A stretch of DNA of 64,000 nt, taken from positions 1 through 64,000 of the IMG/VR virus record IMGVR_UViG_3300032223_001420. The stretch is one strand, 5' to 3'. The stretch is from a virus. Below the pieces are notes generated by a model, which ran no database searches, was not told where the DNA came from, and saw only the letters and a program-made list of their open reading frames with translations. Below are positions 1 through 37,029 of the stretch, in pieces (position 1 is the first letter of the stretch; each line of letters starts with the position of its first letter). The position numbers and the translations under genes were made by a program.

Positions 1-70
1 GTTCGTCTATCGGTTAGGACATCGCCCTTTCACGGCGGTAAGAGGAGTTCGATTCTCCTACGGTGTGCCA
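1..70 (+). tRNA. tRNA-Glu(TTC), 5' end truncated by the window
   Basis: Anticodon arm TCGCC-CTTTCAC-GGCGG, T-arm GTTCGATTC, 3' CCA at 68-70. Confidence 0.9.
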
Positions 71-120
71 GTTTTTTATAGGAGACCTGTCATGGATAGT
101 GACAAGAGTGGTAAGATGAA

Positions 121-196
121 GGGAGTATGGTCAAACGGTTAAGACAGCGGACTTTTAATCCGTCAGGTCAGGGTTCGAATCCCTGTGCTCCCACCA
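121..196 (+). tRNA. tRNA-Lys(TTT)
   Basis: Acceptor GGGAGTA/TGCTCCC, anticodon loop CTTTTAA, GGTTCGAATCC, encoded CCA. Confidence 0.93.
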
Positions 197-399
197 ATAT
201 CATTAATTGTGTTATTATGGAAAATTCCAGTGATCGCTGGATAGTGCTTCCCGAAATGACTTGTTGTCCGGATTATTCAAGTCTATAGGGTGTGACTGAC
301 GAAAAACCTATGACGATAGGAACAATAAGAGCAGTCCTATTAAATGCAAACCCTAGGCGGTGAATCCTAGGTATAACATGATAACACAATTAATGGTAT
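197..399 (+). ncRNA. Unidentified ~200-nt multibranched structured RNA between tRNA-Lys and tRNA-Gln
   Basis: 197-219 pairs with 377-399 (23 bp, two G-U pairs); internal helices 226-241, 258-283, 285-340 (with the 307-320 hairpin) and 352-371. Confidence 0.7.
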
Positions 400-403
400 C
401 AGT

Positions 404-479
404 TGGAGATTCGCCAAGTTGGTAAGGCATCGGATTTTGATTCCGACATGCACAGGTTCGAGTCCTGTATCTCCTACCA
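404..479 (+). tRNA. tRNA-Gln(TTG)
   Basis: Anticodon arm TCGGA-TTTTGAT-TCCGA, GGTTCGAGTCC, CCA end. Confidence 0.92.
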
Positions 480-518
480 AGTTTAAGTTTACAGTGTACT
501 AGTTTTAAGTTTACAATG

Positions 519-592
519 CTCGGTGTGATGTAATGGCAGCATAGCGGTCTCCAAAACCGTTCGTTGCGGTTCGAGTCCGTACACCGAGGCCA
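519..592 (+). tRNA. tRNA-Trp(CCA)
   Basis: Acceptor CTCGGTG/CACCGAG, anticodon loop CTCCAAA, CCA end. Confidence 0.92.
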
Positions 593-598
593 AACAAC

Positions 599-685
599 GG
601 AGAGTTGGCAGAGTGGTAATGCACCGGATTGCTAATCCGCCGTTTCGAAAGAGGCGCACAGGTTCGAGTCCTGTACTCTCCGCCA
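599..685 (+). tRNA. tRNA-Ser(GCT)
   Basis: Acceptor GGAGAGT/ACTCTCC, anticodon loop TTGCTAA, long variable arm, CCA end. Confidence 0.92.
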
Positions 686-704
686 ATTACGATTGTGCCA
701 ACGC

Positions 705-733
705 TTGACAAATCAAAAAATTTCTGCGATAAT
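705..733 (+). promoter_or_regulatory. Sigma70-type early promoter
   Basis: TTGACA-17 nt-GATAAT, ending 7 nt before ATG 741. Confidence 0.7.
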
Positions 734-740
734 AGATACT

Positions 741-947
741 ATGAATACAAAAATGTGGATTGACCCACCAGCGGGTTGGAAGTATGGCTTTCCTAAAGTG
801 TATGATAAGTCAGTTGATGGCGATTGTACGCAATGGATGCTTAAAAACGGTTATCCGCAACGAGAAATTGATTTATGCGGCAACCATTTTCATGTTAGAA
901 TGTGGGAGTATACCAATGAAGACGAAAATTCCGAAAAAACCACGTAA
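741..947 (+). CDS. Hypothetical phage protein
   Basis: ORF MNTKMWIDPPAGWKYGFPK, directly downstream of the promoter. Confidence 0.7.
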   Translation: MNTKMWIDPPAGWKYGFPKVYDKSVDGDCTQWMLKNGYPQREIDLCGNHFHVRMWEYTNEDENSEKTT

Positions 948-1074
948 TTTTGTTGCAAAAGACTTGATGACGCCAAAATATTCGATGAAAGTCGAAAAAT
1001 CGAGTGTGAATTTTTACAATCGTGCGTCAGAAAAATCGAAATTATGCAGGAATTACCATTTTTATGCAAACTAA
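916..1074 (+). CDS. Small basic hypothetical protein (NFVAK motif)
   Basis: MKTKIPKKPRNFVAKDL, overlapping neighbouring ORFs as is common in phage operons. Confidence 0.55.
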   Translation: MKTKIPKKPRNFVAKDLMTPKYSMKVEKSSVNFYNRASEKSKLCRNYHFYAN

Positions 1075-1085
1075 GCGGAAAAAAC

Positions 1086-1520
1086 ATGAATTTATTCAAG
1101 AAAAAAGTTGCAGTTGAAGAAAAAGAACAGGAAGATGGTGATGTTGCCGAGAATTATGACGGTTTCTACTTTCTTCCTGATTTTGAAGACTTTGAAGACA
1201 ACATGCAGTTGGCATTTTTCAAGTTTAAAGATGATATGAAAGATGCAAAACCGATAGAATCATCATCTGTCGGTGATAAATTTCATTTAGCGTTCTTTAC
1301 GCAAGATGAAGACGGTGCTCCAGTGTTTCAAGATTCATTTGAAGCAATTTTAGCCGATCCTGTTGTGTATATTAACAATATGGTCGGTACCGGAATGTCT
1401 GGATGTATCTTACGTAAGACAGAAAAATCAGATGTGTGGTGGACTGACTATTTGGATTACGTAACTGGTGGTGAGTTTAAAGCAAAAGTGAGAGCAGCAT
1501 TTTCTAACCTAGCGGAGTGA
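1086..1520 (+). CDS. Acidic hypothetical protein
   Basis: ORF track; start moved to the ATG after GCGGA. Confidence 0.7.
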   Translation: MNLFKKKVAVEEKEQEDGDVAENYDGFYFLPDFEDFEDNMQLAFFKFKDDMKDAKPIESSSVGDKFHLAFFTQDEDGAPVFQDSFEAILADPVVYINNMVGTGMSGCILRKTEKSDVWWTDYLDYVTGGEFKAKVRAAFSNLAE

Positions 1521-1524
1521 TAAT

Positions 1525-1818
1525 ATGAGTGATAATGTTTTTACAGGTAACACCAAAGAAGCAAAAGATAGCCGTCAATGGCTAATCGATAATTTGCTTG
1601 AGAGTGTGGTTGAAGTTACGTTTACAAAAAAAGACGGTACTGAACGTGTAATGAATTGTACCTTGCATGAAGACTATTTACCAGAAACTACTGGTGTAGG
1701 CAAAGCAGCAAGTTTGGATGCTCTTTCGGTATTCGATACTGACGTTGAAGATTGGCGTTCTTTCCGTTGGGATTCAGTGAAAGCGGTAAAACTTTCAGTG
1801 GAGAAAACTGATGCCTAA
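1525..1818 (+). CDS. WYL_2/SH3-like phage protein
   Basis: V.FTKKDGTER.M.CTL...V.D.....WRSFR motif typical of T4-like phages. Confidence 0.7.
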   Translation: MSDNVFTGNTKEAKDSRQWLIDNLLESVVEVTFTKKDGTERVMNCTLHEDYLPETTGVGKAASLDALSVFDTDVEDWRSFRWDSVKAVKLSVEKTDA

Positions 1819-2101
1819 GTATATCGTCGAGCAATTGATGACATATCGCAATGTGTATGTTGTCGAAGCAGATAATCAAACACAAGCGATTAAAATTGCA
1901 GAAAACGCCGACGATAACTGGCAGAAATTTCTTGGTACAACGACCATAGATATTAATGAATATACCGATGAACGAATCGCATACTTCAAACAGAAAGAAT
2001 ATTTCTGGGATGGCTTTTCATATCTAGATTCTGATGGGTATCTTGCATATACGTATCCTAATGGTGATAAAAACGAACCAAAAGAAATATTAATCAAATA
2101 A
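1811..2101 (+). CDS. Hypothetical protein
   Basis: ORF track; GGAG SD upstream. Confidence 0.7.
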   Translation: MPKYIVEQLMTYRNVYVVEADNQTQAIKIAENADDNWQKFLGTTTIDINEYTDERIAYFKQKEYFWDGFSYLDSDGYLAYTYPNGDKNEPKEILIK

Positions 2102-2107
2102 GGAACT

Positions 2108-2182
2108 GCGGGTGTAACTCAGTGGTAGAGTGTCAGCCTTCCAAGCTGTTCGTCGCAGGTTCGAACCCTGTCACCCGCTCCA
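2108..2182 (+). tRNA. tRNA-Gly(TCC)
   Basis: Acceptor GCGGGTG/CACCCGC, anticodon loop CTTCCAA, GGTTCGAACCC, TCCA end. Confidence 0.93.
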
Positions 2183-2186
2183 AAAT

Positions 2187-2471
2187 ATGAAATTAAAAAT
2201 ATCAGGTATACTATATGATGTTGTGTACCGTTCAACTGAAGAGATGAATGGTCTTATCGGTTCAGCCGATTTCAACAAACAATTAATCTCAATCAATAAA
2301 GACCACACCGCACAAACTCAAGAAATTGCATTTGTGCATGAAGTATTGCACATACTTAGTGATGCTTATGGTGTTGGTATGTCAGAAGAACAAATCAAAA
2401 TTATGACTCATGCAATAGTTGCATTGTATAAGGATAACGAACTACATGAAAACTTGGACATTAGAAGTTAA
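2187..2471 (+). CDS. Small HEXXH zinc-metallopeptidase-like protein
   Basis: FVHEVLH motif with a downstream EE; start moved to the ATG after tRNA-Gly. Confidence 0.6.
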   Translation: MKLKISGILYDVVYRSTEEMNGLIGSADFNKQLISINKDHTAQTQEIAFVHEVLHILSDAYGVGMSEEQIKIMTHAIVALYKDNELHENLDIRS

Positions 2472-2637
2472 AAAAATGATGGTGACCGATGACTATTACA
2501 TTGAGTTTCCAGAAGAGGTGTTAGAAGAAGCAGGATGGAAGCCAGGTGATACTTTGAAGTGGACTGACAAGGGTGATGGTTCGTGGTCACTATCAAAGAT
2601 TAATGAAAATACTGAGTCGAATGAAGAACAGAAATGA
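2446..2637 (+). CDS. AbrB/MazE/SpoVT-like DNA-binding protein
   Basis: YIEFPEEVLEEAGWKPGDTLKW swapped-hairpin pattern. Confidence 0.65.
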   Translation: MKTWTLEVKKMMVTDDYYIEFPEEVLEEAGWKPGDTLKWTDKGDGSWSLSKINENTESNEEQK

Positions 2638-2673
2638 TTAAATACTAATGTTGTTATTTTTTGAGGAGATGAT

Positions 2674-2814
2674 ATGAAAACATATAAGTGTGAAGTATGC
2701 GACCATATCCATGATGAGTCGGAACACGGTAAGTTGGAAGATTTACCAAAGTTTGCAAACTGCCCAAGTTGCGGTAGTGACGCAAGAGAAGTTTATAAAG
2801 AAGTAGAATTCTAA
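2674..2814 (+). CDS. Rubredoxin-like protein (46 aa, not in the ORF track)
   Basis: MKTYKCEVCDHIHDESEHGKLEDLPKFANCPSCGSDAREVYKEVEF: CxxC...DLP...CPxCG; GAGGAG SD. Confidence 0.8.
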   Translation: MKTYKCEVCDHIHDESEHGKLEDLPKFANCPSCGSDAREVYKEVEF

Positions 2815-2828
2815 TCAAGGAGATTCAA

Positions 2829-2903
2829 ATGGCTTGGACTACACCTTCAGCAACAGATATGCGTTTTGGTTTTGAAATTACAATGTATATTGCAAATCGC
2901 TAA
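2829..2903 (+). CDS. pqqA: Pyrroloquinoline quinone precursor peptide PqqA (24 aa, not in the ORF track)
   Basis: MAWTTPSATDMRFGFEITMYIANR has the W..P...D.R.GFE.TMY signature (ExxxY); AAGGAG SD; terminator follows. Confidence 0.92.
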   Translation: MAWTTPSATDMRFGFEITMYIANR

Positions 2904-2905
2904 AG

Positions 2906-2930
2906 AAAGGACCTTAGGGTCCTTTTTTAT
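2906..2930 (+). terminator. Rho-independent terminator, possibly bidirectional
   Basis: AAAGGACC-TTAG-GGTCCTTT followed by a T-run. Confidence 0.8.
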
Positions 2931-3099
2931 TACCTCTAGCTGGTTTAATCCTAATCAACGAATCATCTTTTACACTGCTGATGGCATGTTCTATTATACG
3001 AGCTAAGGCTTCATTTGAAGTAGCAAGAATCAAGCTGTCGGTTTTATTTGTACGAACGTAGTAAAACGTTTCGTTATCGATTATTTCTTTGTATATCAT
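2914..3099 (-). CDS. Hypothetical protein
   Basis: ORF track; overlaps the upstream minus-strand gene. Confidence 0.5.
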   Translation of the reverse strand: MIYKEIIDNETFYYVRTNKTDSLILATSNEALARIIEHAISSVKDDSLIRIKPARGNKKGP

Positions 3100-3865
3100 A
3101 AATTTCGCAATCGATCCATTTTAGATTATTATATTTGTCATACAACCAACTTCCTTTAGGTATTAAACATTTACCCAACTCTGGTGATTGTTCTATACGT
3201 ACCTGAACGACTGCCCAAACTAACCAAATGAAATAGATGATGAACATTGTTGCTAATCCATATTTCCATGCTTCACATTTGATTTTGTTAATTCTTTTCT
3301 TCTTCAGTATTGCCGCTTCTCTTTCCTTTTTCATTTTGATGCCAATAGCAATACTTTGTTCTTCTTGGATTCTTTCCATCATCTTTTCAACTTTGGTATA
3401 TAAATCACCCAATTCAGGAGGACTCTGATACACCATAATCTCACGAAGTTCAGCCTGCATGGCTTGAAGTTTGGTTTGCATTAGAACACGCTGCAAAGCA
3501 CGTTTACCTACACTATGCGGTCCTTCATAAACTTCGTATGCATGTCTTTCTTCTTCTTGAAAGATAGCCATACAAGTTGCCATGTTTTCGAAGTAAGCAC
3601 CTAAGTTCTCACCGATGACCGTATAGATATCATCGGGCTGTTTTTTGCTTAGTTCTATTACACGATTTTTTTCTTGGATGTACTGATTATGTTCAGCAAC
3701 GGTAGGAGGGCGATCTTTATGTCGGTCGTGGAACTGCGATTCAAGGTCTGTAAGAACACCCTTGACATCACTGGCGGCAGATGCAATTTCTTTGTAGAGT
3801 TTGCATCCTTGTTTAACTGCGGCGACTGCACCATTTGCTAAGGCAAAGAGGGTTAGTGGATCCAT
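3074..3865 (-). CDS. Hypothetical coiled-coil membrane protein
   Basis: MDPLTLFALANGAVAAVK...; coiled coil plus a C-terminal TM helix (YGLATMFIIYFIWLVWAVV). Confidence 0.75.
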   Translation of the reverse strand: MDPLTLFALANGAVAAVKQGCKLYKEIASAASDVKGVLTDLESQFHDRHKDRPPTVAEHNQYIQEKNRVIELSKKQPDDIYTVIGENLGAYFENMATCMAIFQEEERHAYEVYEGPHSVGKRALQRVLMQTKLQAMQAELREIMVYQSPPELGDLYTKVEKMMERIQEEQSIAIGIKMKKEREAAILKKKRINKIKCEAWKYGLATMFIIYFIWLVWAVVQVRIEQSPELGKCLIPKGSWLYDKYNNLKWIDCEIYDIQRNNR

Positions 3866-3923
3866 TTGTCCCTTTAACAACCTTTCGTATATGAAACATA
3901 AAAAAGTTCAAAAAAGACAATGC

Positions 3924-3953
3924 TTGACAATCACCGTATATTTATGTTAGAAT
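3924..3953 (+). promoter_or_regulatory. Sigma70-type promoter
   Basis: TTGACA...TGtTAGAAT upstream of ORF 3987. Confidence 0.6.
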
Positions 3954-3986
3954 GGAAGTTGAACTAAATAATGTGATGAGGATATT

Positions 3987-5063
3987 ATGAGTAAATCTAT
4001 TGACATTAAAGCAATCTTATCAAACAACAAAGAACCCAAGTTTTCGGGTGAGTTGTCGCAAACGGAACTGACTCAAACGCTGAGTTGGTACGCCCAGAAT
4101 CGTGATAGCAAAGATGCAATAAAGTACGCTACCGAATACTTCAAAAAGAAACTTAAAATTGAGGCTCCTGACGGCTTGAAATCACAAGCCCCTACGTTCG
4201 GCTATATCTGTCGGATTGTGAGCCTAGGCGGCGTTCTGAACGATTCTAACGCTAAATGGTTCGATAAGACCATTGAGGAGCTAAAGAATGCAAAACGAGC
4301 CGCTACCAAGTCCGCCAAAGTTGCAAATGTTATATCAATTCAAGATCATATCAAAAGGAAATCGTCCGACTATATTGGAGAGTTGGAAGGTCAAATTGAC
4401 GAACTGATAACATCCGATTTTAAAACAGATGTTTCACCTTATGCAATGATGAACGCTTTGGAAGTAAAAGGCGCACATACAAAATTTATAATTGACCATT
4501 TTAAAACACGCCGTGCTGAATATGATGAAGTTTTGACAACCGATGATCCAGATGTCAAAGAAGCATATTCTAACTTTTCAAAAGTGCAACTAAAAAAATT
4601 AGTTGCGTATTGTGACCAAGTAATTCTTGATGGTATGAAACTTGCGGGTGATGCTGTTAAATCACGTAAGCCACGTAAACGAAAAGCTAAGTCGCCTGAG
4701 CAGTTGACTACTAAATTAAACTACGCAAAAGATTTTGCCGAATTAAAATTAGTATCGGTTGATCCGAAAACTATTGTTGGTGCAAATCAATTATGGGTGT
4801 ATAATACCAAAACACGAAAACTTGGTGTTTACGTTGCTCTTGATGCTGCTGGTCTAAGCGTTAAAGGCTCGACGATACAAAATTTTGCGGAAAGCAAATC
4901 AATCTGCAAAACGATTCGTGTACCGACAACAACAAGAATGAATGATGTGCTTAATGCAGGCAAAGTTGCATTACGTAATATATTAAATGATATTCGTGCT
5001 GCTGAAAATAAGTTGACAGGACGAATTAATGCTGATACAATTCTATTGAGAACAGTAAAATGA
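3987..5063 (+). CDS. Conserved T4-like phage hypothetical protein upstream of rnh
   Basis: 358 aa; C-terminal IVGA..LWVYNTKTRKLG.Y...KGSTI..F...S..KT.R...GRIN.DTILL pattern. Confidence 0.75.
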   Translation: MSKSIDIKAILSNNKEPKFSGELSQTELTQTLSWYAQNRDSKDAIKYATEYFKKKLKIEAPDGLKSQAPTFGYICRIVSLGGVLNDSNAKWFDKTIEELKNAKRAATKSAKVANVISIQDHIKRKSSDYIGELEGQIDELITSDFKTDVSPYAMMNALEVKGAHTKFIIDHFKTRRAEYDEVLTTDDPDVKEAYSNFSKVQLKKLVAYCDQVILDGMKLAGDAVKSRKPRKRKAKSPEQLTTKLNYAKDFAELKLVSVDPKTIVGANQLWVYNTKTRKLGVYVALDAAGLSVKGSTIQNFAESKSICKTIRVPTTTRMNDVLNAGKVALRNILNDIRAAENKLTGRINADTILLRTVK

Positions 5064-5908
5064 TAATTTTTGATTTTAATCAAGTAGCAATTTCATCACT
5101 GATGGAACAAATCGGCTCTTCCAAGAAACCTGTGGAAGAGAATCTGGTACGTCACATGATTTTAAATGTGATTCGTACATACGTGAAGAAATTCAAAGCT
5201 ACACATGGACCCGAAGTTGTGATCGCTTGTGATAACCGCAACTACTGGCGCCGTGATTTTTTTCCACAATATAAAGCATCACGCAAGAAAAATCGTGATG
5301 CATCTGGTCACGACTGGAATTCTATCTTTGAGTGCCTACATAAAATCAAAGAAGAGTTGAAATTATATTCACCATATAAAGTGATTGATGTTGACACTGC
5401 TGAAGCAGATGATATAATTGCAGTGTTGTCTATGCGCCAATCAGCACATGAAAAGGTAATGATACTTTCGTCAGATAAAGACTTTGCACAGTTGCAGAAG
5501 TTCACCAACGTCGAACAGTTTTCACCTATTCTGAAAAAGTTCATTAAAGAACCTTTGCCTGCTATACAACTAAAGCAGATGATTATTCGTGGTGACAAGG
5601 GCGATGGTATACCTAACATTCTATCGCAAGATAATGTCTTCACCGAAGGTGGTCGTCAGAAACCTATTACCGAAGCAAAGATCATTAACTGGCTCAATCA
5701 GAAACCTGAAGAGTTCTGCAATGAAGATATGCTCCGTAACTACAAACGAAATGAACTGCTAATTGACCTAACGCAAATACCAGAGTCGTTGCAGCAAACA
5801 ATCGTGACTACATATGAAAGCACCTCTGCCAAAACTAGACAGGTGTTTATGAATTATATGATTGCCAACAAACTTAAAAATTTAATTGAGGTCCTGGATG
5901 AGTTCTGA
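5060..5908 (+). CDS. rnh: T4-like RNase H (5'-3' exonuclease, FEN family)
   Basis: IIFDFNQ, YWRR.FFP.YKASR, EADDII, SSDKDF.QL and GDKGDGIPN motifs. Confidence 0.93.
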   Translation: MIIFDFNQVAISSLMEQIGSSKKPVEENLVRHMILNVIRTYVKKFKATHGPEVVIACDNRNYWRRDFFPQYKASRKKNRDASGHDWNSIFECLHKIKEELKLYSPYKVIDVDTAEADDIIAVLSMRQSAHEKVMILSSDKDFAQLQKFTNVEQFSPILKKFIKEPLPAIQLKQMIIRGDKGDGIPNILSQDNVFTEGGRQKPITEAKIINWLNQKPEEFCNEDMLRNYKRNELLIDLTQIPESLQQTIVTTYESTSAKTRQVFMNYMIANKLKNLIEVLDEF

Positions 5909-6329
5909 ACTATTGTATTCCGAAATTCTAGACGAATTTACAAACGCACCAACAAAGCAAGATAAAATCAACATTCTTCGTAAGAATGGTGATACTCGAT
6001 TCAAATTCTTTTTAGAATTGGCACTAAGTCCTAACGTCGAATGGGATGTTATTATTCCACACATTTATCGACCAGCGGTTGAACCTGCTGGATTAAACTT
6101 TGCATATCTCGACACAGAGATGCCTAAGATGTATCGGTTTATAAAAAATCATCCGATGCGACCTCAAGGATATACTGCCGAGAAAACAACTCAACAATTA
6201 CAAGTTATCTTAGAATCATTGCACAAAGATGAGTCGGCAATTTTTGCACAATTGATTCAAGGTAAGTTTAAAGTAAAAGGGTTAACTTCTGCCCTAGTCA
6301 AAGAAGCCTTTCCTGATATTAACTTATGA
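5898..6329 (+). CDS. Conserved T4-like hypothetical protein
   Basis: LYSEIL...K..ILR...Q.ILESLH..E...K...LVKEAFP pattern, typically downstream of rnh. Confidence 0.7.
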   Translation: MSSELLYSEILDEFTNAPTKQDKINILRKNGDTRFKFFLELALSPNVEWDVIIPHIYRPAVEPAGLNFAYLDTEMPKMYRFIKNHPMRPQGYTAEKTTQQLQVILESLHKDESAIFAQLIQGKFKVKGLTSALVKEAFPDINL

Positions 6330-6760
6330 AAATCGTTGTCGTTTCTGGTGGGTTTGACCCCATACATTCTGGTCACATTGCTTTGTTGCGTGATGCTTCA
6401 GAACTAGGTGACATTTTAATTGCAGGTTTAAATTCTGATGAATGGTTAACACGCAAAAAAGGTAAACCATTCATGCCATTCGGTGAACGTAAAATTGTTC
6501 TTGGTGCTATTCAATGGGTAGACACTGTTTGGACATTCGATGACCCTGATAATACTGCCTGTGATTTGCTTAAAAAAGTGAGAGAATATTATTTGCAAGA
6601 TACAACAGAGAATTACGAATTTGTATTCGCAAATGGTGGTGACAGAATCGAATCAAATAACGCAGAGGTAAATGTTGAGGGTTGGGAATTTGTTTACGGT
6701 ATTGGCGGATTCGATAAAAAGAATTCGTCGTCAAAAATTCTGAAAGACTGGAATGAGTAA
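6326..6760 (+). CDS. Cytidylyltransferase-like nucleotidyltransferase (TagD/RfaE type)
   Basis: SGGFDPIHSGH (HIGH motif), GLNSD.WL.RKKG, FANGGDR, K.NSSS. Confidence 0.9.
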   Translation: MKIVVVSGGFDPIHSGHIALLRDASELGDILIAGLNSDEWLTRKKGKPFMPFGERKIVLGAIQWVDTVWTFDDPDNTACDLLKKVREYYLQDTTENYEFVFANGGDRIESNNAEVNVEGWEFVYGIGGFDKKNSSSKILKDWNE

Positions 6761-6926
6761 AGGATCAAAACCAAGACCCATAGAAATACCGATGGAAAAG
6801 TTTAATGCTAACTGGGATACAATTTTTAAGAAAAAGGTGAAACATGAAAGTAGCAGTCGTAACGCCAACTGTGGGTGCAAAGATTCTGGAAAAGTGTGTA
6901 CAAAGTGTTCAACAACAAACGTATGA
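6753..6926 (+). CDS. Small hypothetical protein (MSKGSKPRP...F..NWD.IF)
   Basis: 57-aa ORF filling the gap 6760-6844; its C-terminal part overlaps the next gene. Confidence 0.45.
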   Translation: MSKGSKPRPIEIPMEKFNANWDTIFKKKVKHESSSRNANCGCKDSGKVCTKCSTTNV

Positions 6927-7593
6927 TAACATAGTACATTACATTTTTATTGATGGTTCGGAGCATGATAAAAAAGTCCAAGAAATTATCAAAGATTATG
7001 ATGTATCTCAAGTCTTACTTGAACAGAATGTCGGCAAAGGCTGGTATGGTCATCGTGTATATGCTGCATGTTCTTATTTGGTCGATGCTGATGTTATATG
7101 TTACCTCGATGAAGATAATTGGCTGGAACCTAATCACGTTGAGACATTGGTTCAAAAAATCAAAGAAGGTGCTGATTGGGCATACTCATTAAGAAAGATT
7201 TATGATAAAGATGGCGAATTCGTTTGTGAAGATAATTGCGAATCGCTAGGTAAGTGGCCAGTTTATTTTAACAAAGAACAATTCCATATTGATACTTCGT
7301 CATTCATGGTTAAACTTGATGTAGCCAACAAAATTGGTCCTGCATGGTATGGGCAATGGGGACAAGATCGCAAATTCTTCTCCGCACTCAAAACATACTT
7401 TCCCAATTACGCTTGTTCAAAAGAATATTCATTGTGCTATCGCTTAGATGGTAATGAAAACTCTGTGACTGCTGAATTCTTTGATGTGGGTAATGCTGAG
7501 AATGCTAAACAGTATCCAAATGGTTTTCCATGGAAAGAAAAATATAAACAAGAATATCTTGTCGGTCCAGGCATAACAATCGTAGGAAATTAA
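6844..7593 (+). CDS. Glycosyltransferase, GT-A fold / family 2
   Basis: VAVVTPT...CVQSV..QTY...IDGS; YLDED DxD motif. Confidence 0.88.
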   Translation: MKVAVVTPTVGAKILEKCVQSVQQQTYDNIVHYIFIDGSEHDKKVQEIIKDYDVSQVLLEQNVGKGWYGHRVYAACSYLVDADVICYLDEDNWLEPNHVETLVQKIKEGADWAYSLRKIYDKDGEFVCEDNCESLGKWPVYFNKEQFHIDTSSFMVKLDVANKIGPAWYGQWGQDRKFFSALKTYFPNYACSKEYSLCYRLDGNENSVTAEFFDVGNAENAKQYPNGFPWKEKYKQEYLVGPGITIVGN

Positions 7594-7594
7594 G

Positions 7595-8092
7595 ATGAGA
7601 ATTGAGAATACACCACTTGATGGTGTGAGATTAGTTAAGCCTGATGTTTATGAAGATTATCGTGGCACAAACTTTGAACTATACAACGAAACAAAATTTC
7701 GTGATGAGGTTATATTCAACAATTTTGTAGTAGATAGTATTTCCACATCACGCAAACATACTCTCCGTGGTATTCACGGAGATAATAAAACTAAAAAACT
7801 TGTGTCGTGTCTGTATGGTACTATTCATATGGTCATCATCAATCGTGATCCCGATTCGAAACAATATAATAATTGGTTCCACATCACACTATCAGATCGC
7901 AACAAATATCAACTGTTGATACCACCAAAGTTTGGTAATGGTCATTTGGTCATGTCTGACGAAGCAGTGTTCAGTTACAAGTTAAGTGAATACTATGGCC
8001 GTGAATCTCAGTTCACAATCAAGTGGAATGATCCGATGCACAATTTCTTTTGGCCAATTAAAAATCCTATTCTTTCTGAAAGAGACGCATGA
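7595..8092 (+). CDS. rfbC: dTDP-4-dehydrorhamnose 3,5-epimerase (RmlC/RfbC family)
   Basis: D.RG.F.E, S.S...LRGIH, IPP.FG.G, YK....Y, W.DP motifs. Confidence 0.88.
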   Translation: MRIENTPLDGVRLVKPDVYEDYRGTNFELYNETKFRDEVIFNNFVVDSISTSRKHTLRGIHGDNKTKKLVSCLYGTIHMVIINRDPDSKQYNNWFHITLSDRNKYQLLIPPKFGNGHLVMSDEAVFSYKLSEYYGRESQFTIKWNDPMHNFFWPIKNPILSERDA

Positions 8093-9042
8093 GAACAGCA
8101 TTGGTAACAGGTGGTGCAGGTTATCTAGGTAGTCATTTAGCAAAAGCATTAAAGAAAGCAGGTTACACTACAATCTGTTTTGACATTAAATCACCACGCA
8201 ATATGCTGTACTGGAATTATACGATAATTGGCGATGTTCGTTCGAATATTTTAAAAATAGCATTTGCTGAACATCCAATAGATGTTGTATTTCATCTAGC
8301 AGGTCGAATTGAAGTTGGTGAATCTGTAGAAAATCCAGAATTGTTCTGGGATGTGAATGTGGGTGGCACAACAAACCTACTTAATATAATGAGAGAAAAA
8401 AATGTTAGGAATATTGTTTATTCTTCTACTGCCGGTCTATATCGTTCTTCTGGGACGAACCTCTCCGAAAAAGATCAAATAGATGACAACAATCCGTATG
8501 CCAATAGCAAGTATGCTGCGGAGTGTGCAATTCGTAATTCAACTATGAACCATATTATTTTTAGGTTCTTCAATCTTGCTGGTGCTGATCCAGATGGTGA
8601 AATGGGTGAGATGCATAATCCAGAGACGCATCTGATTCCAGTGATGTTCGAAAATCTAAATAATTTCATTATTAATGGTAAGGGTTATAGAACACCAGAT
8701 GGTACATGCATTCGAGATTTCGTACATGTATCTGATGTTGCTGATGCTCATGTCGCTGCTGCCGACTATATGCAAACACGACTGCCAAATCAACCAACTC
8801 TATTCAATCTAGGAACAGGCAAAGGATATTCAGTATTGGAAGTAATTCATGCTGCTATTGAAGAACTTAAAATACCTATCAATTACGGATTCGGAGAACG
8901 GCGTGAAGGTGATCCACCACGACTTGTTGCTATCACAGACCTTGCTAAAAAACATTTAAAATTCAAACCTAAACACGACTTAAAATCTATATTGAGAACG
9001 GCATACGCTTGGCATGAAAAACACAGACGAAATAACATTTGA
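8089..9042 (+). CDS. galE: UDP-glucose 4-epimerase (extended SDR)
   Basis: TGGAGYLGSH, VGESV..P, SSTA, PYANSK (YxxxK), R.FN.AGA, HLIP, DGTCIRDFVHV, R.GDP. Confidence 0.9.
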   Translation: MRTALVTGGAGYLGSHLAKALKKAGYTTICFDIKSPRNMLYWNYTIIGDVRSNILKIAFAEHPIDVVFHLAGRIEVGESVENPELFWDVNVGGTTNLLNIMREKNVRNIVYSSTAGLYRSSGTNLSEKDQIDDNNPYANSKYAAECAIRNSTMNHIIFRFFNLAGADPDGEMGEMHNPETHLIPVMFENLNNFIINGKGYRTPDGTCIRDFVHVSDVADAHVAAADYMQTRLPNQPTLFNLGTGKGYSVLEVIHAAIEELKIPINYGFGERREGDPPRLVAITDLAKKHLKFKPKHDLKSILRTAYAWHEKHRRNNI

Positions 9043-33372: not shown

Positions 33373-34228
33373 AGATAATAAAAATTTTGCTGGTAAGAAC
33401 GGGTTTACTTGGTGGGTTGGTGTTGTTGAAAAAATCAATGATCCACTCAAACTAGGTCGTTGCCGTGTTCGTTGCGCTGGCTGGCATACAGATAATAAAT
33501 CAATATTGCCCTCAGATTCGTTGCCATGGGCACAGCCGGCTATGCCAACAAATAATACAAGTACCTATCCACCACGTGAAGGAGATATGGTATTTGGATT
33601 TTTCACCGATGGAGATAATGCACAAGACCCAATAATTCTTGGTGTACTTCCTGGCATACCCCTCACCGCTGGAAATTATCAACAAGGATTTAATGATGCA
33701 CGAACAAGTGCAGAACTTGCTGCTGCACCAGTTAAACCCGAAGATTCTGCTACAAATTATCCACGCAAGTTGGATGAGCCGACAACATCACGTTTAGCAA
33801 GAAATGATACTGATTATCCATCAGCAATTAATGTAGCAAAGAAAGCGAAAAAAGCAAGTAAGGTAGAACCAGATTCGTATTATGCAGCCAAGTATCCTTA
33901 CAACAATGTTTATGAATCTGAATCAGGACATGCATTTGAATTTGATGACACCAAAGATGCCGAACGAATTCATTTATATCATCGTTCAGGTTCTTATGTT
34001 GAATATGGTCCATTAGGTGATCGGTCAGAAAGAATACAAAGAAACAAGTTTGAGGTCGTTGTCGGTAGCGAACAAGTGTATGTTAAGGGTGATGTTACCA
34101 TTTATGTTGATGGTAATGTAAAGATGACTGTTGGTGGTAACTATCAAGCAGATATTGGTGGTACATGTAAGATAACATCAGGTGGTAATATGACACTCAA
34201 AGCACCACGTATAGATTTGAATCCATAA
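33359..34228 (+). CDS. gp5: Baseplate central spike gp5 lacking a lysozyme domain
   Basis: WWVGVVE...DP..LGR.RVR..G.H, LPWA, GFF.DG..AQ.P.ILG, YPYN.V.ESESGH..EFDDT, short beta-helix. Confidence 0.9.
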   Translation: MEQSEDNKNFAGKNGFTWWVGVVEKINDPLKLGRCRVRCAGWHTDNKSILPSDSLPWAQPAMPTNNTSTYPPREGDMVFGFFTDGDNAQDPIILGVLPGIPLTAGNYQQGFNDARTSAELAAAPVKPEDSATNYPRKLDEPTTSRLARNDTDYPSAINVAKKAKKASKVEPDSYYAAKYPYNNVYESESGHAFEFDDTKDAERIHLYHRSGSYVEYGPLGDRSERIQRNKFEVVVGSEQVYVKGDVTIYVDGNVKMTVGGNYQADIGGTCKITSGGNMTLKAPRIDLNP

Positions 34229-34533
34229 TGCCAGCAGTTTCTAGAAAAGATGGAACCGATACAATAACAACAGGTCATGGTTGTGATGCTACAACTGTGA
34301 CCGATCAAGGTTCATCTACAGTTTTTGTCAATAGTATTGGTGCAGTTCGTGCTGGAGATTTATGTAAAGTGCATTTAATTCTTGTGGGTGATTCTTGTGT
34401 ACCACATACGGTGCCATTAACTTCATATTCTGGTAGTGTTTTTGTAAATGGAAAAGGTGTTGGAAGAAAAGGTGATTCTTATTCCGGAGAAGTTTTAACA
34501 TCCGGTTCAGGTAATGTTTTCGCTGGAGGCTGA
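34228..34533 (+). CDS. PAAR-domain spike tip (gp5.4-like)
   Basis: MPAVSR, GS.TVFVN.....R.GD....H, GS.NVF.G. Confidence 0.88.
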   Translation: MPAVSRKDGTDTITTGHGCDATTVTDQGSSTVFVNSIGAVRAGDLCKVHLILVGDSCVPHTVPLTSYSGSVFVNGKGVGRKGDSYSGEVLTSGSGNVFAGG

Positions 34534-34544
34534 ATAAATAAACG

Positions 34545-34967
34545 ATGTCAACAAAAATAACATCAACCGACCCATCTATAGCTTCCGAGAGAAGTTATAT
34601 AGATTTAGATTTGAACTTTACAGCACATCCTGTAAAGAAAGATATTAATGTGCATTATAATGAAAAAGCGGTCATCAATTCTGTAAAGAATTTAGTATCG
34701 ACAAATTTTTATGAACGACCATTTCAGCCAGAATTGGGTTCGAATATTCGTCGTTTGCTTTTTGAACCGATTGATTCTATTGTTGCCGCTTCTTTGGAAA
34801 GACAACTTCAAGAAACGATTGAAAACTTTGAGCCGAGAGTTTCAATAGATTCGATTACTGCATATGCTGCACCGGATGAAAATGGATATAGTGTTAGTTT
34901 AACTTTTTTTATTCAGAACTCACCTAATCCAATAACAATTAACTTCTTTTTAGAGCGTATAAGATAA
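34545..34967 (+). CDS. gp25: Baseplate wedge subunit gp25
   Basis: DLDL.F..HP, SVKNLV.T...ERPF.P..G..I..LLFE, I.NFEPRV, LER.R. Confidence 0.93.
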   Translation: MSTKITSTDPSIASERSYIDLDLNFTAHPVKKDINVHYNEKAVINSVKNLVSTNFYERPFQPELGSNIRRLLFEPIDSIVAASLERQLQETIENFEPRVSIDSITAYAAPDENGYSVSLTFFIQNSPNPITINFFLERIR

Positions 34968-34968
34968 A

Positions 34969-37029
34969 ATGACAGAACGTCTAAGAGTAACCGAACTTGA
35001 TTTTGATACAATCAAGCAGAATTTAAAAACATATTTACAAGCACAAAACAAGTTTACCGACTATGATTTCGATGGTTCTGGTCTGTCTATTTTGCTTGAT
35101 ATTCTGGCATACAATACTCACTATAATGCGTATTACCTGAATATGGTTGCAAACGAATCATTTTTAGATACTGCTCTTTTACGTGATTCGGTTATTTCTC
35201 ATGCTAAAGTTTTGGGCTACGTTCCATATTCGACTAAAGCGCCGATTGCTAATATTAACTTTACTGTACAAACCACTTCAAATTCAGCAGCAACAATTAC
35301 TGTCCCTAAAGGATTTCGTTTTTTATCAAATGAGATTGATGGTGTAAGTTATGGTTTTGTCACACTACAAGAGAATAAAGTTACCAAAGCAAACACCGAC
35401 TTTGTTTTTGAAAACCTAGAATTGTATGAGGGACAGTTAGTAACATATTCATATACGTATGATACGACATCCAATCCCAAACAAATATTTACAATTCCTG
35501 ATGAAAACGTTGACACAACAACGATTACGGTAGTCGTTCAGCCTTCTACATCTTGTACCGCTTCTGAAGTATATACATTCGCTCCAGATGCATCGGAAAC
35601 GAATACAAACTCTTCTGTGTTTTATCTACAAGAAAATAAGAGCAAAAAATACGACATTTATTTTGGTAACGATGTTATCGGTAAAAGTTTAACTAATGGT
35701 TCGATTGTTTCAATTTCATACTTGATTACAAATGGAAGTGCTGCAAATAAAGCAGCTAATTTTGTAGCCGCAGGTGGGGGATTAACTGATTCGTTAGGTA
35801 ATAATCAAACAAACTTTATAATCGATTTGGTCAACGAAGCATCTGGTGGTGCTGAACGAGAGTCGGTCGATGAAATTAAATTTTCTGCTCCTTTACAATT
35901 TACCACGCAGAATCGATTAGTGACAATCAAAGACTATGAGTCTTTCATTATTAAAAATTATCCTTCGGTAGATTCGGTATCGGTATGGGGTGGTGAAGAT
36001 GAAGCTCCTCCTGTTTTTGGAACAGTATTTCTTTCTCTAAAACCTCGTCAAAACTATTATCTGTCAAACGTTGAAAAGCAAAGAATTATCGATGAGATTA
36101 TAAAACCAAAAGCAGTTGTTGCTGTTCAAACGATCATACGTGATCCAGAATATTTGTATTTGTTAATTTCACCAAACGTAACGTATGATCCCAAGAAAAC
36201 AATTTTAACGCCAGAACAATTGAAGACATCAATTAGAACGGCTGTTGTAAACTATAAAAATACTTACTTGGATAAGTTTAATTCGAGATTTATTCTGTCT
36301 AAACTTCAACAAGATATTGCTTCAGTTGATTTGAACTCAATCATTGGTTCAAAAGTGGTGGTTCGTCTGCAAAAAAGATTTGAGCCAACACTAGGTATTG
36401 GTCAATCATATACTCTCTATTTTAATGCTGCGTTATATCGTGGTACGATTTCTGATAAATTGACATCTACATATTTTAAAACATATGATAGTTTGGGTAT
36501 TGAAAGAGAAGTTCAGTTTGAAGAAATTCCACAATCATACTCAGGTATTTCATCTATTTCGATTATCAATCCTGGTTCAGGATATACTTCTGCACCGAAT
36601 GTAACTATTTCTGGTGACGGAACTGGAGCGACTGCTGTGGCTACCGTGGTCAATGGAGTAATCTCAAACATAACTGTTGTTAATAGAGGCATCGATTATA
36701 CACGTGCAGTTATTACTATTGATGGTGGTAACGGTTATGGTGCATCAGCCGCAGCCGAAGTTGATGCTAAGATCGGTACAATACGAACTGTATATTATGA
36801 TACTCTATCACAAAAACAAGTTGTTGATGAATCCGCTGGTACAATCAATTATGATACCGGTGAAGTTGTGATTAACAATATTCTCATTAACTCAGTCACT
36901 TCGGCCGATGGTTATATTAGACTTTCAATTGAGGCTGATAAAGGTATAATAGATACAGTAAAAAATACAATTATAACTATTGATGAACAAGACCCAATTT
37001 CGATTAGCACAACACTAGAAACTGTATAA
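34969..37029 (+). CDS. gp6: Baseplate wedge subunit gp6
   Basis: ELDFD.IK.NL, F.DYDF.GS.L..LLD.LAYNTHY, GG...ES...IK..AP.....Q.R.VT..DY, WGGE. Confidence 0.95.
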   Translation: MTERLRVTELDFDTIKQNLKTYLQAQNKFTDYDFDGSGLSILLDILAYNTHYNAYYLNMVANESFLDTALLRDSVISHAKVLGYVPYSTKAPIANINFTVQTTSNSAATITVPKGFRFLSNEIDGVSYGFVTLQENKVTKANTDFVFENLELYEGQLVTYSYTYDTTSNPKQIFTIPDENVDTTTITVVVQPSTSCTASEVYTFAPDASETNTNSSVFYLQENKSKKYDIYFGNDVIGKSLTNGSIVSISYLITNGSAANKAANFVAAGGGLTDSLGNNQTNFIIDLVNEASGGAERESVDEIKFSAPLQFTTQNRLVTIKDYESFIIKNYPSVDSVSVWGGEDEAPPVFGTVFLSLKPRQNYYLSNVEKQRIIDEIIKPKAVVAVQTIIRDPEYLYLLISPNVTYDPKKTILTPEQLKTSIRTAVVNYKNTYLDKFNSRFILSKLQQDIASVDLNSIIGSKVVVRLQKRFEPTLGIGQSYTLYFNAALYRGTISDKLTSTYFKTYDSLGIEREVQFEEIPQSYSGISSISIINPGSGYTSAPNVTISGDGTGATAVATVVNGVISNITVVNRGIDYTRAVITIDGGNGYGASAAAEVDAKIGTIRTVYYDTLSQKQVVDESAGTINYDTGEVVINNILINSVTSADGYIRLSIEADKGIIDTVKNTIITIDEQDPISISTTLETV

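Follow-up and report, generated by a model that had tools for sequence, protein, structure and literature searches.

The PQQ-dependent methanol dehydrogenase is the entry point for both carbon and energy in abundant aquatic methylotrophs. Viral genes related to this enzyme have been described. In its passages on the Lake Baikal methylotroph virus population VP_266, the study of Coutinho et al. 2020 (PMC7678222) reports a viral PqqA together with a methanol dehydrogenase, and it proposes for them the same auxiliary metabolic gene (AMG) role that we consider here. Likewise, pqqA is among the virus-encoded genes in the list given in PMC13188868. Viral PqqA has thus been in print since 2020, and the novelty implied by the initial annotation of our locus was overstated. 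The VP_266 PqqA, as presented in the passages on that population, is phage-encoded and is a proposed aid to methanol oxidation in methylotroph hosts, which is also how we read the present gene. Compared by description, the two cases differ in that VP_266, which is assigned to Methylophilaceae, also carries a methanol dehydrogenase gene, whereas our record lacks a dehydrogenase and its peptide is of a non-Methylophilaceae Burkholderiales type. A further candidate precedent for a phage pqqA, PMC11118758, was rejected; the PqqA in that paper is a family of bacterial RiPPs whose expression accompanies that of defence systems. Our literature search found no statement that all cultured methylophages carry pqqA, no statement that pqqA stands alone in complete phage genomes, and no report that a Burkholderiales-type pqqA is common in a freshwater T4-like phage family.

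Two other systems are useful for comparison. Methylophilaceae hold 3–12 copies of pqqA per single pqqBCDE (Beck et al. 2014; PMC4109929). One Ca. Methylopumilus genome, of 1.3 Mb, carries three. The multi-copy orphan pqqA of this family shows that evolution adjusts the dosage of the precursor alone. Like the gene studied here, these orphans are extra precursor genes unlinked to pqqBCDE; unlike it, they are chromosomal and not borne by a lytic phage. The second system is cyanophage psbA (D1 protein), through which a phage encodes a fast-consumed part of the host energy system, with a function in infection that has been shown experimentally. Phage pqqA would follow the same logic, in which energy supply outlasts host shut-off. 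The protein and the pathway are unrelated, however, and the function of psbA is known from experiment, whereas that of phage pqqA is one that we infer.

The window, by which we mean the whole stretch of DNA analysed here, is 64,000 nucleotides long and comprises bases 1–64000 of a linear 86,490-bp IMG/VR virus record, for which CheckV estimates a completeness of 48%. T4-type proteins of the baseplate wedge, the tail-tube cap and the tail are encoded in the window, as is a T4 RNase H-like protein. The RNA genes there include a permuted tmRNA, five complete tRNAs and a further tRNA truncated at the window edge. The gp6-like baseplate protein has its nearest counterparts, 39% identical, in Pelagibacter phage HTVC008M and Methylophilales phage Melnitz. 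The carrier is a lytic, T4-like myophage of the same type as HTVC008M and Melnitz, and pqqA lies inside a bona fide phage genome with phage genes as its flanks, as is expected of an AMG. Megablast of positions 1–8000 against phages returned tRNA-sized matches only, so this search found no close cultured relative at the DNA level. Contigs that are ∼90% identical over kilobase pieces are found in freshwater metagenome runs X2 and X3, which come from two studies, and in the subsurface metagenome X7. The phage lineage is probably one of freshwater and groundwater. A further run, X1, in which 0.96 of the words of the stretch occur, is probably the source sample; regions that had no cover in the comparison with the runs carry no weight here. 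The GC content is 38.5%, a value that is uninformative on the host of a T4-like phage. The features of the locus are collected in Table 1.

Table 1. Features at and around pqqA, with positions numbered from the first base of the window
Feature	Position	Strand	Remarks
tRNA-Gly(UCC)	2108..2182	+	ARAGORN; Rfam tRNA 66.8 bits; last of the tRNA region preceding the pqqA unit
72-aa ORF	2419..2637	+	Same rightward unit, upstream; directly precedes pqqA in closest relatives
Rubredoxin-like gene, 46 aa, CxxC ... CPxCG	2674..2814	+	Ends 14 nt upstream of pqqA
Shine-Dalgarno AAGGAGA	2817..2823	+	6 nt upstream of pqqA ATG; read from sequence
pqqA, 24-aa PQQ precursor peptide	2829..2903	+	ORF with ATG start; PF08042 and TIGR02107
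Intrinsic-terminator hairpin, A-tract/U-tract arms	2903..2928	.	Folding; 11-bp stem 2903–2913/2918–2928, 4-nt loop 2914–2917; begins at pqqA stop codon; common to convergent pqqA and minus-strand genes
Convergent gene, 268 aa	3074..3880	-	Conserved right-hand neighbour of pqqA in relatives
T4 RNase H-like gene	5060..5908		

A 24-codon ORF is by itself no evidence of a gene, since the first 8 kb of the window alone hold 127 ORFs of at least 20 aa. The ORF at this position rises above chance because it matches the PqqA family. The initial annotation had described it as a pqqA of 24 codons that gene calling had missed, and had named a search with PqqA profiles as one way to check it, with a lack of any match as a refutation. 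The ORF starts with ATG, its length and translation are as described, and both profiles place the peptide well inside the family. The Pfam PqqA model PF08042 scores 41.4 bits (E = 1.3e-10, cut-off 21.1) with profile positions 1–19 of 19 aligned, and the NCBIfam equivalog model TIGR02107 scores 40.5 bits (cut-off 20) with positions 1–21 of 21 aligned; each score is roughly double the curated cut-off of its model. Searched in six frames, the 86,490-bp record gave this PqqA match and no other. The translated peptide has Trp3 and Pro6 in its leader, which is the part of PqqA recognised by PqqD, and its core carries Glu16 and Tyr20, spaced E-x-x-x-Y within FEITMY. Both leader residues, which lie outside our search pattern, are invariant in the 121 viral homologues listed, with Pro encoded by four different codons, and in all 121 the stop falls four codons past the Tyr. 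The E-x-x-x-Y segment was fixed by the search pattern, and its conservation in the viral set is therefore not independent. Every one of the 121 listed ORFs is intact, and they represent 110 distinct nucleotide sequences. A search of PDB sequences with the window peptide gave no match. By profile match and residue content, then, the window ORF is a genuine member of the PqqA family.

The family is widespread in phages. A tblastn search with the window peptide across 50,697 phage records, as had also been suggested at the outset, matched 12. Ten of these are true phage records: four Melnitz strains, P19250A, Venkman, MEP301, MEP401, MEP402 and one environmental podovirus. The other two are contigs named 'Acinetobacter phage MD-2021a' and were discarded; the one that we inspected is a bacterial chromosome with ppk and pqqBCDE. 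The pqqA holders Melnitz (Kyanoviridae), MEP401/402 (Zobellviridae), Venkman, P19250A and MEP301 are unrelated phages. The portion of PMC10580990 that deals with cultured isolates states that no OM43 phages besides Venkman, MEP301 and Melnitz had been isolated before MEP401/402, and it places these three in distinct viral groups. We find pqqA in every cultured OM43/LD28 (Methylophilaceae) phage group named in that portion, the LD28 phage P19250A included. Like the window phage, the cultured Methylophilaceae phages carry a stand-alone pqqA of 23–24 codons with its own ribosome-binding site, and in Melnitz, one of the window phage's nearest cultured relatives, the gene adjoins a tRNA, as it does here. 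Unlike the window peptide, those of the cultured methylophages end in VMNK or VLNK (IMTR in Melnitz), near the Methylophilaceae host form, and they are 64–73% identical to it.

Routine gene calling misses the gene in the GenBank phage records that we examined. None of the ten homologous GenBank phage records annotates pqqA; five have no feature under the match, and in two inspected records that do have a CDS there, the CDS lies on the opposite strand. The main texts of the Melnitz, MEP301, Venkman and MEP401/402 papers, as distinct from their supplements, do not mention a pqq gene. Environmental viruses extend the family much further. Our IMG/VR scans used degenerate DNA patterns, and their totals are lower bounds. 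The core pattern MRFGFE[V/I]TMY occurs in at least 120 contigs, and all 120 matches listed are complete PqqA ORFs. The window-type ending pattern occurs in at least 119 contigs; eight contigs overlap with the core set, for a union of at least 231.

In the window phage pqqA stands alone, as it generally does in phages. The models for pqqB, pqqC, PqqD and pqqE match nothing in the whole 86,490-bp record, which also contains no PQQ_2 dehydrogenase or quinoprotein dehydrogenase. The earlier statement that the window lacks pqqB–E therefore extends to the entire 86.5-kb record, and a check of the rest of the genome for pqq genes and dehydrogenases, run on this 48%-complete record, likewise yielded none. 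The pqqC model had been silent on our first control genomes and scored 424 bits on a true pqqC in a later control. Because half of the genome is missing, complete pqqA-bearing genomes were tested for pqqC and pqqE. Neither gene was found above the cut-off in 16 IMG/VR records, nine of them at least 90% complete, or in six GenBank phage genomes including Melnitz. The control contig for this search scored 424 and 632 bits, and two of the phage records gave weak generic radical-SAM matches, of 22 and 17 bits. The half of the genome that our record lacks may hold pqq genes; the complete relatives speak against this. A tblastn search for pqqB–E in the stored flanks of viral pqqA, among the matches listed, found none near 120 loci of the core set (1.02 Mb) and none near 119 of the window-type set (0.98 Mb). 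The same queries match 64 of 120 listed bacterial pqqA loci, and the other 56 have no pqqB–E beside pqqA. Adjoining pqqBCDE is typical of pqqA, although not obligatory, and is not seen in the 86.5-kb record. Since those 56 bacterial loci and the orphan copies of Methylophilaceae are alike in this respect, the missing neighbours do not disqualify the gene. A PQQ-dependent alcohol/methanol dehydrogenase (608 bits) accompanies pqqA in one of 50 larger viral records that carry the gene, which matches the Baikal case; that just one in 50 co-encodes the enzyme runs counter to the precursor-supply reading that we set out below.

The locus carries recognizable expression signals. The strong Shine-Dalgarno sequence noted initially is present, and an SD-like 4-mer is found at positions −18 to −5 in all 224 listed viral pqqA genes with usable flanks. 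The hairpin taken at first for pqqA's own terminator is also present, but because it stands between convergent genes it must be regarded as a shared, two-way terminator and not as one belonging to pqqA. Its folding energy is −14.9 kcal/mol (z = −4.14), a stability that no shuffle out of 200 reached; a simple consensus terminator scan did not flag it. In metagenome contigs from relatives, hairpins occur at the same place with both stem arms altered. More broadly, a downstream hairpin of −8 kcal/mol or lower follows 127 of the 224 listed viral pqqA genes, versus 26 of 224 shuffles. A reading of the site as an RNA gene was dropped, as Rfam models on positions 1–5000 found tRNAs only, and no match of any kind at 2200–5000. 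Among the RNA sequencing runs listed, none contains the stretch.

The 46-aa rubredoxin-like protein scores 21.6 bits against Pfam Rubredoxin (PF00301), below its cut-off of 23, and 24.4 bits against NF045768, where the cut-off is 90. Its best PDB sequence matches are rubredoxins (E = 4.8e-4), and the four Cys are present by reading. This gene and pqqA are probably co-transcribed. Further upstream, the 72-aa ORF has a weak MazE/AbrB-like match (20.9 bits, below cut-off), and its homologues flank pqqA in loci L289, L264, L340, L262, L305 and L322. On the other side, the 268-aa convergent gene has no Pfam match, and homologues with 61–89% identity adjoin pqqA in relatives.

The ending of the peptide carries information on the host. 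Bacterial PqqA endings sort by taxon among the 125 ORFs listed in a set of one genome per species. EVTMYVMNK, in 31 listed ORFs, comes nearly always from records titled Methylophilaceae or its genera (two are titled only Pseudomonadota); EVTMYIYNR, in 15, nearly always from Methylococcales-titled records; and EVTMYICNR, in six, from the Methylophaga group. The window ending, EITMYIANR, is found in 20 of the 125. Named non-Methylophilaceae Burkholderiales genera account for 17 of these, unresolved Proteobacteria bins for two and a bin labelled Bifidobacterium for one; no listed ORF from Methylophilaceae, Methylococcales or Methylophaga has it. The suggestion of a betaproteobacterial host, made originally from the look of the ending, agrees with this distribution. 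The bacterial Burkholderiales-type PqqA shares with the window peptide its length class, the W..P leader, the E-x-x-x-Y core and the EITMYIANR ending. The difference is that the window copy is phage-borne, in a record without pqqBCDE. The best bacterial match to the window PqqA, among the ORFs listed, agrees at 21 of 24 residues. As far as such comparisons reach, the PqqA ending could be usable as a marker for host prediction.

We consider it likely that this stand-alone phage pqqA, carried by a T4-like myophage, feeds the PQQ pathway of the host. The gene would be expressed as the last member of a short rightward unit, behind small ORFs and the rubredoxin-like gene and ahead of the terminator. 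The 24-aa peptide would then enter the PqqD/PqqE/PqqB/PqqC pathway of a host assumed to possess pqqBCDE; PqqE would cross-link Glu16 to Tyr20, and the product would mature to PQQ. PqqA is consumed one-for-one, one peptide being spent per PQQ, and the enzymes are reused. Thus, the precursor would be the component that runs out when the phage shuts down host transcription, and pqqA alone could keep the periplasmic PQQ-dependent dehydrogenases (XoxF/MxaF or others) supplied and energy flowing through a long latent period. For OM43 phages, the passages on infection in PMC10580990 give latent periods of 17–20 h, which suits this proposal, as do the multiple pqqA copies of Methylophilaceae. The auxiliary-gene reading is well supported, in that it fits the conservation of the gene, the selection on it and its host distribution, and from these we infer expression of the peptide, its processing by host enzymes and a benefit to the phage. 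PQQ is itself a stable, reusable cofactor. A need for fresh PQQ during infection is for that reason not obvious, barring the synthesis of new apo-enzyme or leakage of the cofactor. Also counting against supply are the bacterial agreement of at most 21 in 24 residues among the ORFs listed and, as described below, the rarity of the exact peptide ending in sampled Burkholderiales and the weak hint of a relative without the gene. We have weighed other explanations, in which pqqA is a neutral passenger, a means of interference or the source of another product, or an attachment site; these fit the data less well than precursor supply.

The first of these holds that host pqqA, being tiny, multi-copy and highly transcribed, is often captured and lost again, such that the intact viral copies reflect recent capture. 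We regard this as unlikely, chiefly in light of how the gene has been kept. Of the 119 listed window-type loci, 72 share one or more of 27 window genes. In at least nine relatives, pqqA occupies the same slot between homologues of the 72-aa ORF and the 268-aa convergent gene, while the flanking proteins have diverged to ∼51–69% identity; in ∼40 other loci, among the contexts listed, it sits beside homologues of window genes at 17.8–18.7 kb, a different slot. The set of 127 loci analysed (120 listed from IMG/VR, six from GenBank and the window) resolves into 14 multi-member flank groups and 23 singletons. Homologous flanks imply that pqqA was inherited within a phage lineage, and this is the case for 388 pairs of viral loci. 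In these pairs, pN/pS, computed on the codons that the search pattern left free, is 0.22, 0.10 and 0.22 at flank identities of 60–80, 80–90 and 90–97%, respectively. By this measure viral pqqA is under purifying selection, although, should capture be frequent, evolution in the hosts could have left part of this signal. The intact ORFs of all 121 listed homologues and the ribosome-binding site in 224 of 224 genes likewise argue against a neutral passenger.

Some observations do suit a passenger. Among the matches listed, most of the viral peptides that our first scan found have an identical counterpart in Methylophilaceae hosts, and hosts hold many orphan copies from which to capture, as the 56 of 120 listed bacterial loci without adjacent pqqB–E illustrate. 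In addition, one low-depth metagenome contig (85% likeness) gives a weak hint of a relative that has only a hairpin where pqqA stands, and pqqA may be dispensable in this lineage. The similarity between phage and bacterial copies does not resemble that of recent capture, however. It is confined to the ORF and ∼20 nt, with a median length of 87 nt and a median nucleotide identity of 88.5% (range 73–98%). The flanks of pqqA are common to other viral contigs and hardly to bacterial pqqA loci. We also considered whether bacterial orphan pqqA genes are prophage-borne, or whether the viral contigs are mis-called bacterial DNA. Neither idea is supported: only 23 of 120 listed bacterial loci share any protein of at least 80 aa with viral loci, in each case with one or two of them.

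A second alternative accepts a function and changes its direction. By occupying host PqqD/PqqE, or by signalling, the peptide might divert or slow down the synthesis of PQQ; alternatively, it might mature to some other product, perhaps together with the neighbouring rubredoxin-like protein. We think this rather improbable. The argument for it begins with the peptide itself: the exact 15-residue ending of the window peptide was found in two of 401 sampled Burkholderiales genomes, yet window-type endings occur in at least 119 viral contigs. Judged by these counts, the PqqA of the window clade may be a phage-adapted variant, common in viruses and rare in sequenced bacteria. Against interference, the residues required for PQQ formation are all retained, and specific inhibition is excluded for the Methylophilaceae-type phage peptides, since these are identical to the host substrate. 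The case for an alternative product draws on the rubredoxin-like gene 14 nt upstream, but this adjacency is not conserved. Rubredoxin homologues are absent from the stored loci of the closest relatives, L289, L264 and L340, and they lie near pqqA in three of 120 and two of 119 viral loci listed. We have down-weighted a functional rubredoxin–PqqA pair on these counts.

Small conserved host genes are classic attachment sites. Under the third alternative, the phage would integrate into host pqqA, and its own copy would contribute one half of the site and restore the gene after insertion. We hold this to be highly improbable, despite the position of pqqA in an intergenic gap near recombination genes in small phages: the carrier here is a T4-like myophage with no integrase-family match among 24 window proteins in a general Pfam/PHROGs scan, the MEP301 authors report no functional integrase (PMC8024684) and the Melnitz authors none (PMC9004378), the phage–host identity given above falls short of the perfect agreement that an att core should show, and the whole ORF with its own ribosome-binding site is conserved, which goes beyond a 3′ part.

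Precursor supply, if it operates as we propose, may be relevant for several questions. First, phages that sustain methanol dehydrogenase by means of the precursor alone would mark precursor supply as the vulnerable step of cofactor synthesis. Second, a one-peptide auxiliary gene would join the means by which viruses steer C1 cycling. The supply hypothesis is directly testable, since cultured phage–host pairs exist for Melnitz, Venkman, MEP301, MEP401/402 and P19250A. Indeed, the interest of viral pqqA lies mainly in its being systematically unannotated, broadly conserved and testable in existing cultures. Gene calling overlooks pqqA, and the ending of the peptide follows the clade of the host; searches designed to pick up small ORFs could therefore benefit annotation as well as host prediction. 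A wider generalization is more tentative, and our confidence in it falls somewhat below even. It holds that phages whose hosts are PQQ-dependent methylotrophs or related freshwater Burkholderiales have stand-alone pqqA as a hallmark gene, that unrelated lineages of myophages, siphophages and podophages acquired it independently and have long kept it, that its ending marks the host clade, and that precursor supply is limiting. In the IMG/VR scans, a core of the Pseudomonas/Acinetobacter type was found in two contigs only, compared with at least 120 for the methylotroph/Burkholderiales core.

The customary location of pqqA in myophages seems to be the tRNA/tmRNA region. In three large phages (L254 in G017, L255 in G013 and L256 in G034), the gene is placed either just past an extended tRNA array, with counts of 19 and 28 tRNAs, or close to a permuted tmRNA, and it is likewise found beside a tRNA/tmRNA region both in the window and in the cultured Methylophilales phage Melnitz. 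At the left edge of the window, Rfam detects an additional, truncated tRNA, for which ARAGORN makes no call (Table). The tRNA array continues leftwards past this point and, because the window begins at base 1 of the record, is truncated by the record end. Following tRNA-Gly are two small ORFs, one with an IrrE/Peptidase_M78-like match (19.8 bits) and the other with a MazE/AbrB-like match (20.9 bits). Both profile matches are weak and under the cut-off; the two may be a regulator or a toxin–antitoxin-like pair.

Table. Features of the window phage and of a second viral contig
Feature	Position	Strand	Evidence
Additional tRNA, truncated by window start	window 1-67	+	Rfam 38.3 bits
Two small ORFs after tRNA-Gly	window 2130-2637	+	weak profile matches under cut-off
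Minimal rubredoxin-like protein, 46 aa	window 2674-2814	+	CxxC ... CPxCG
Cytidylyltransferase-like gene, family-2 glycosyltransferase and dTDP-4-dehydrorhamnose 3,5-epimerase	window 6326-9042	+	epimerase 152.6 bits
PQQ-dependent alcohol/methanol dehydrogenase frame, 628 aa	G011 34049-35731		TIGR03075, 608 bits

Immediately 5′ of pqqA, and separated from it by 14 nt, is a gene for a minimal rubredoxin-like protein. Its Pfam score falls slightly under the cut-off, and rubredoxins are the top matches in a PDB sequence search (E 4.8e-4). Among the matches listed, homologues occur close to pqqA in five large viral contigs (L058/G017, L107/G034, L100, L305 and L364); none was found near pqqA in the closest relatives of the window phage. 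Metagenome contigs provide weak hints that relatives vary by indels around window 2612-2941, weak because all of these contigs are of low depth at 85% likeness. One contig from freshwater run X3 carries a hairpin alone at the pqqA position, and one from subsurface run X7 skips the rubredoxin-like gene. Relative to the window hairpin, those in freshwater runs X2 and X3 are changed in both stem arms with pairing retained.

Stand-alone pqqA also occurs in a 356-kb, 96% complete jumbo-phage record (L033; G006, IMGVR_UViG_3300023174_000036), where pqqC was not found and the sole radical-SAM-like match is generic (22 bits). A 72-kb viral contig (G011, IMGVR_UViG_3300025120_009955; L249/L250) holds pqqA together with a dehydrogenase frame, the same combination as in the published Lake Baikal population VP_266 (PMC7678222). 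Among bacteria, the streamlined 1.3-Mb genome of Ca. Methylopumilus universalis (G051, via L219) has three pqqA copies, far apart.

In GenBank, “hypothetical protein” CDSs are annotated on the strand opposite the pqqA ORF in Melnitz (L002; MZ577097.1, 76100-76205) and in MW202481.1 (L003; 2067-2195); these are probably mis-calls that hide pqqA. The contig titled “Acinetobacter phage MD-2021a” (L004; CAKLQF020000010.1, 104204-112275) contains ppk, pqqA-B-C-D-E and a membrane dipeptidase, and looks like bacterial chromosome rather than phage.

Elsewhere in the window, the glycosyltransferase- and epimerase-containing cluster, which is conserved in relatives L289, L322 and L314, resembles a sugar-modification module of phages.
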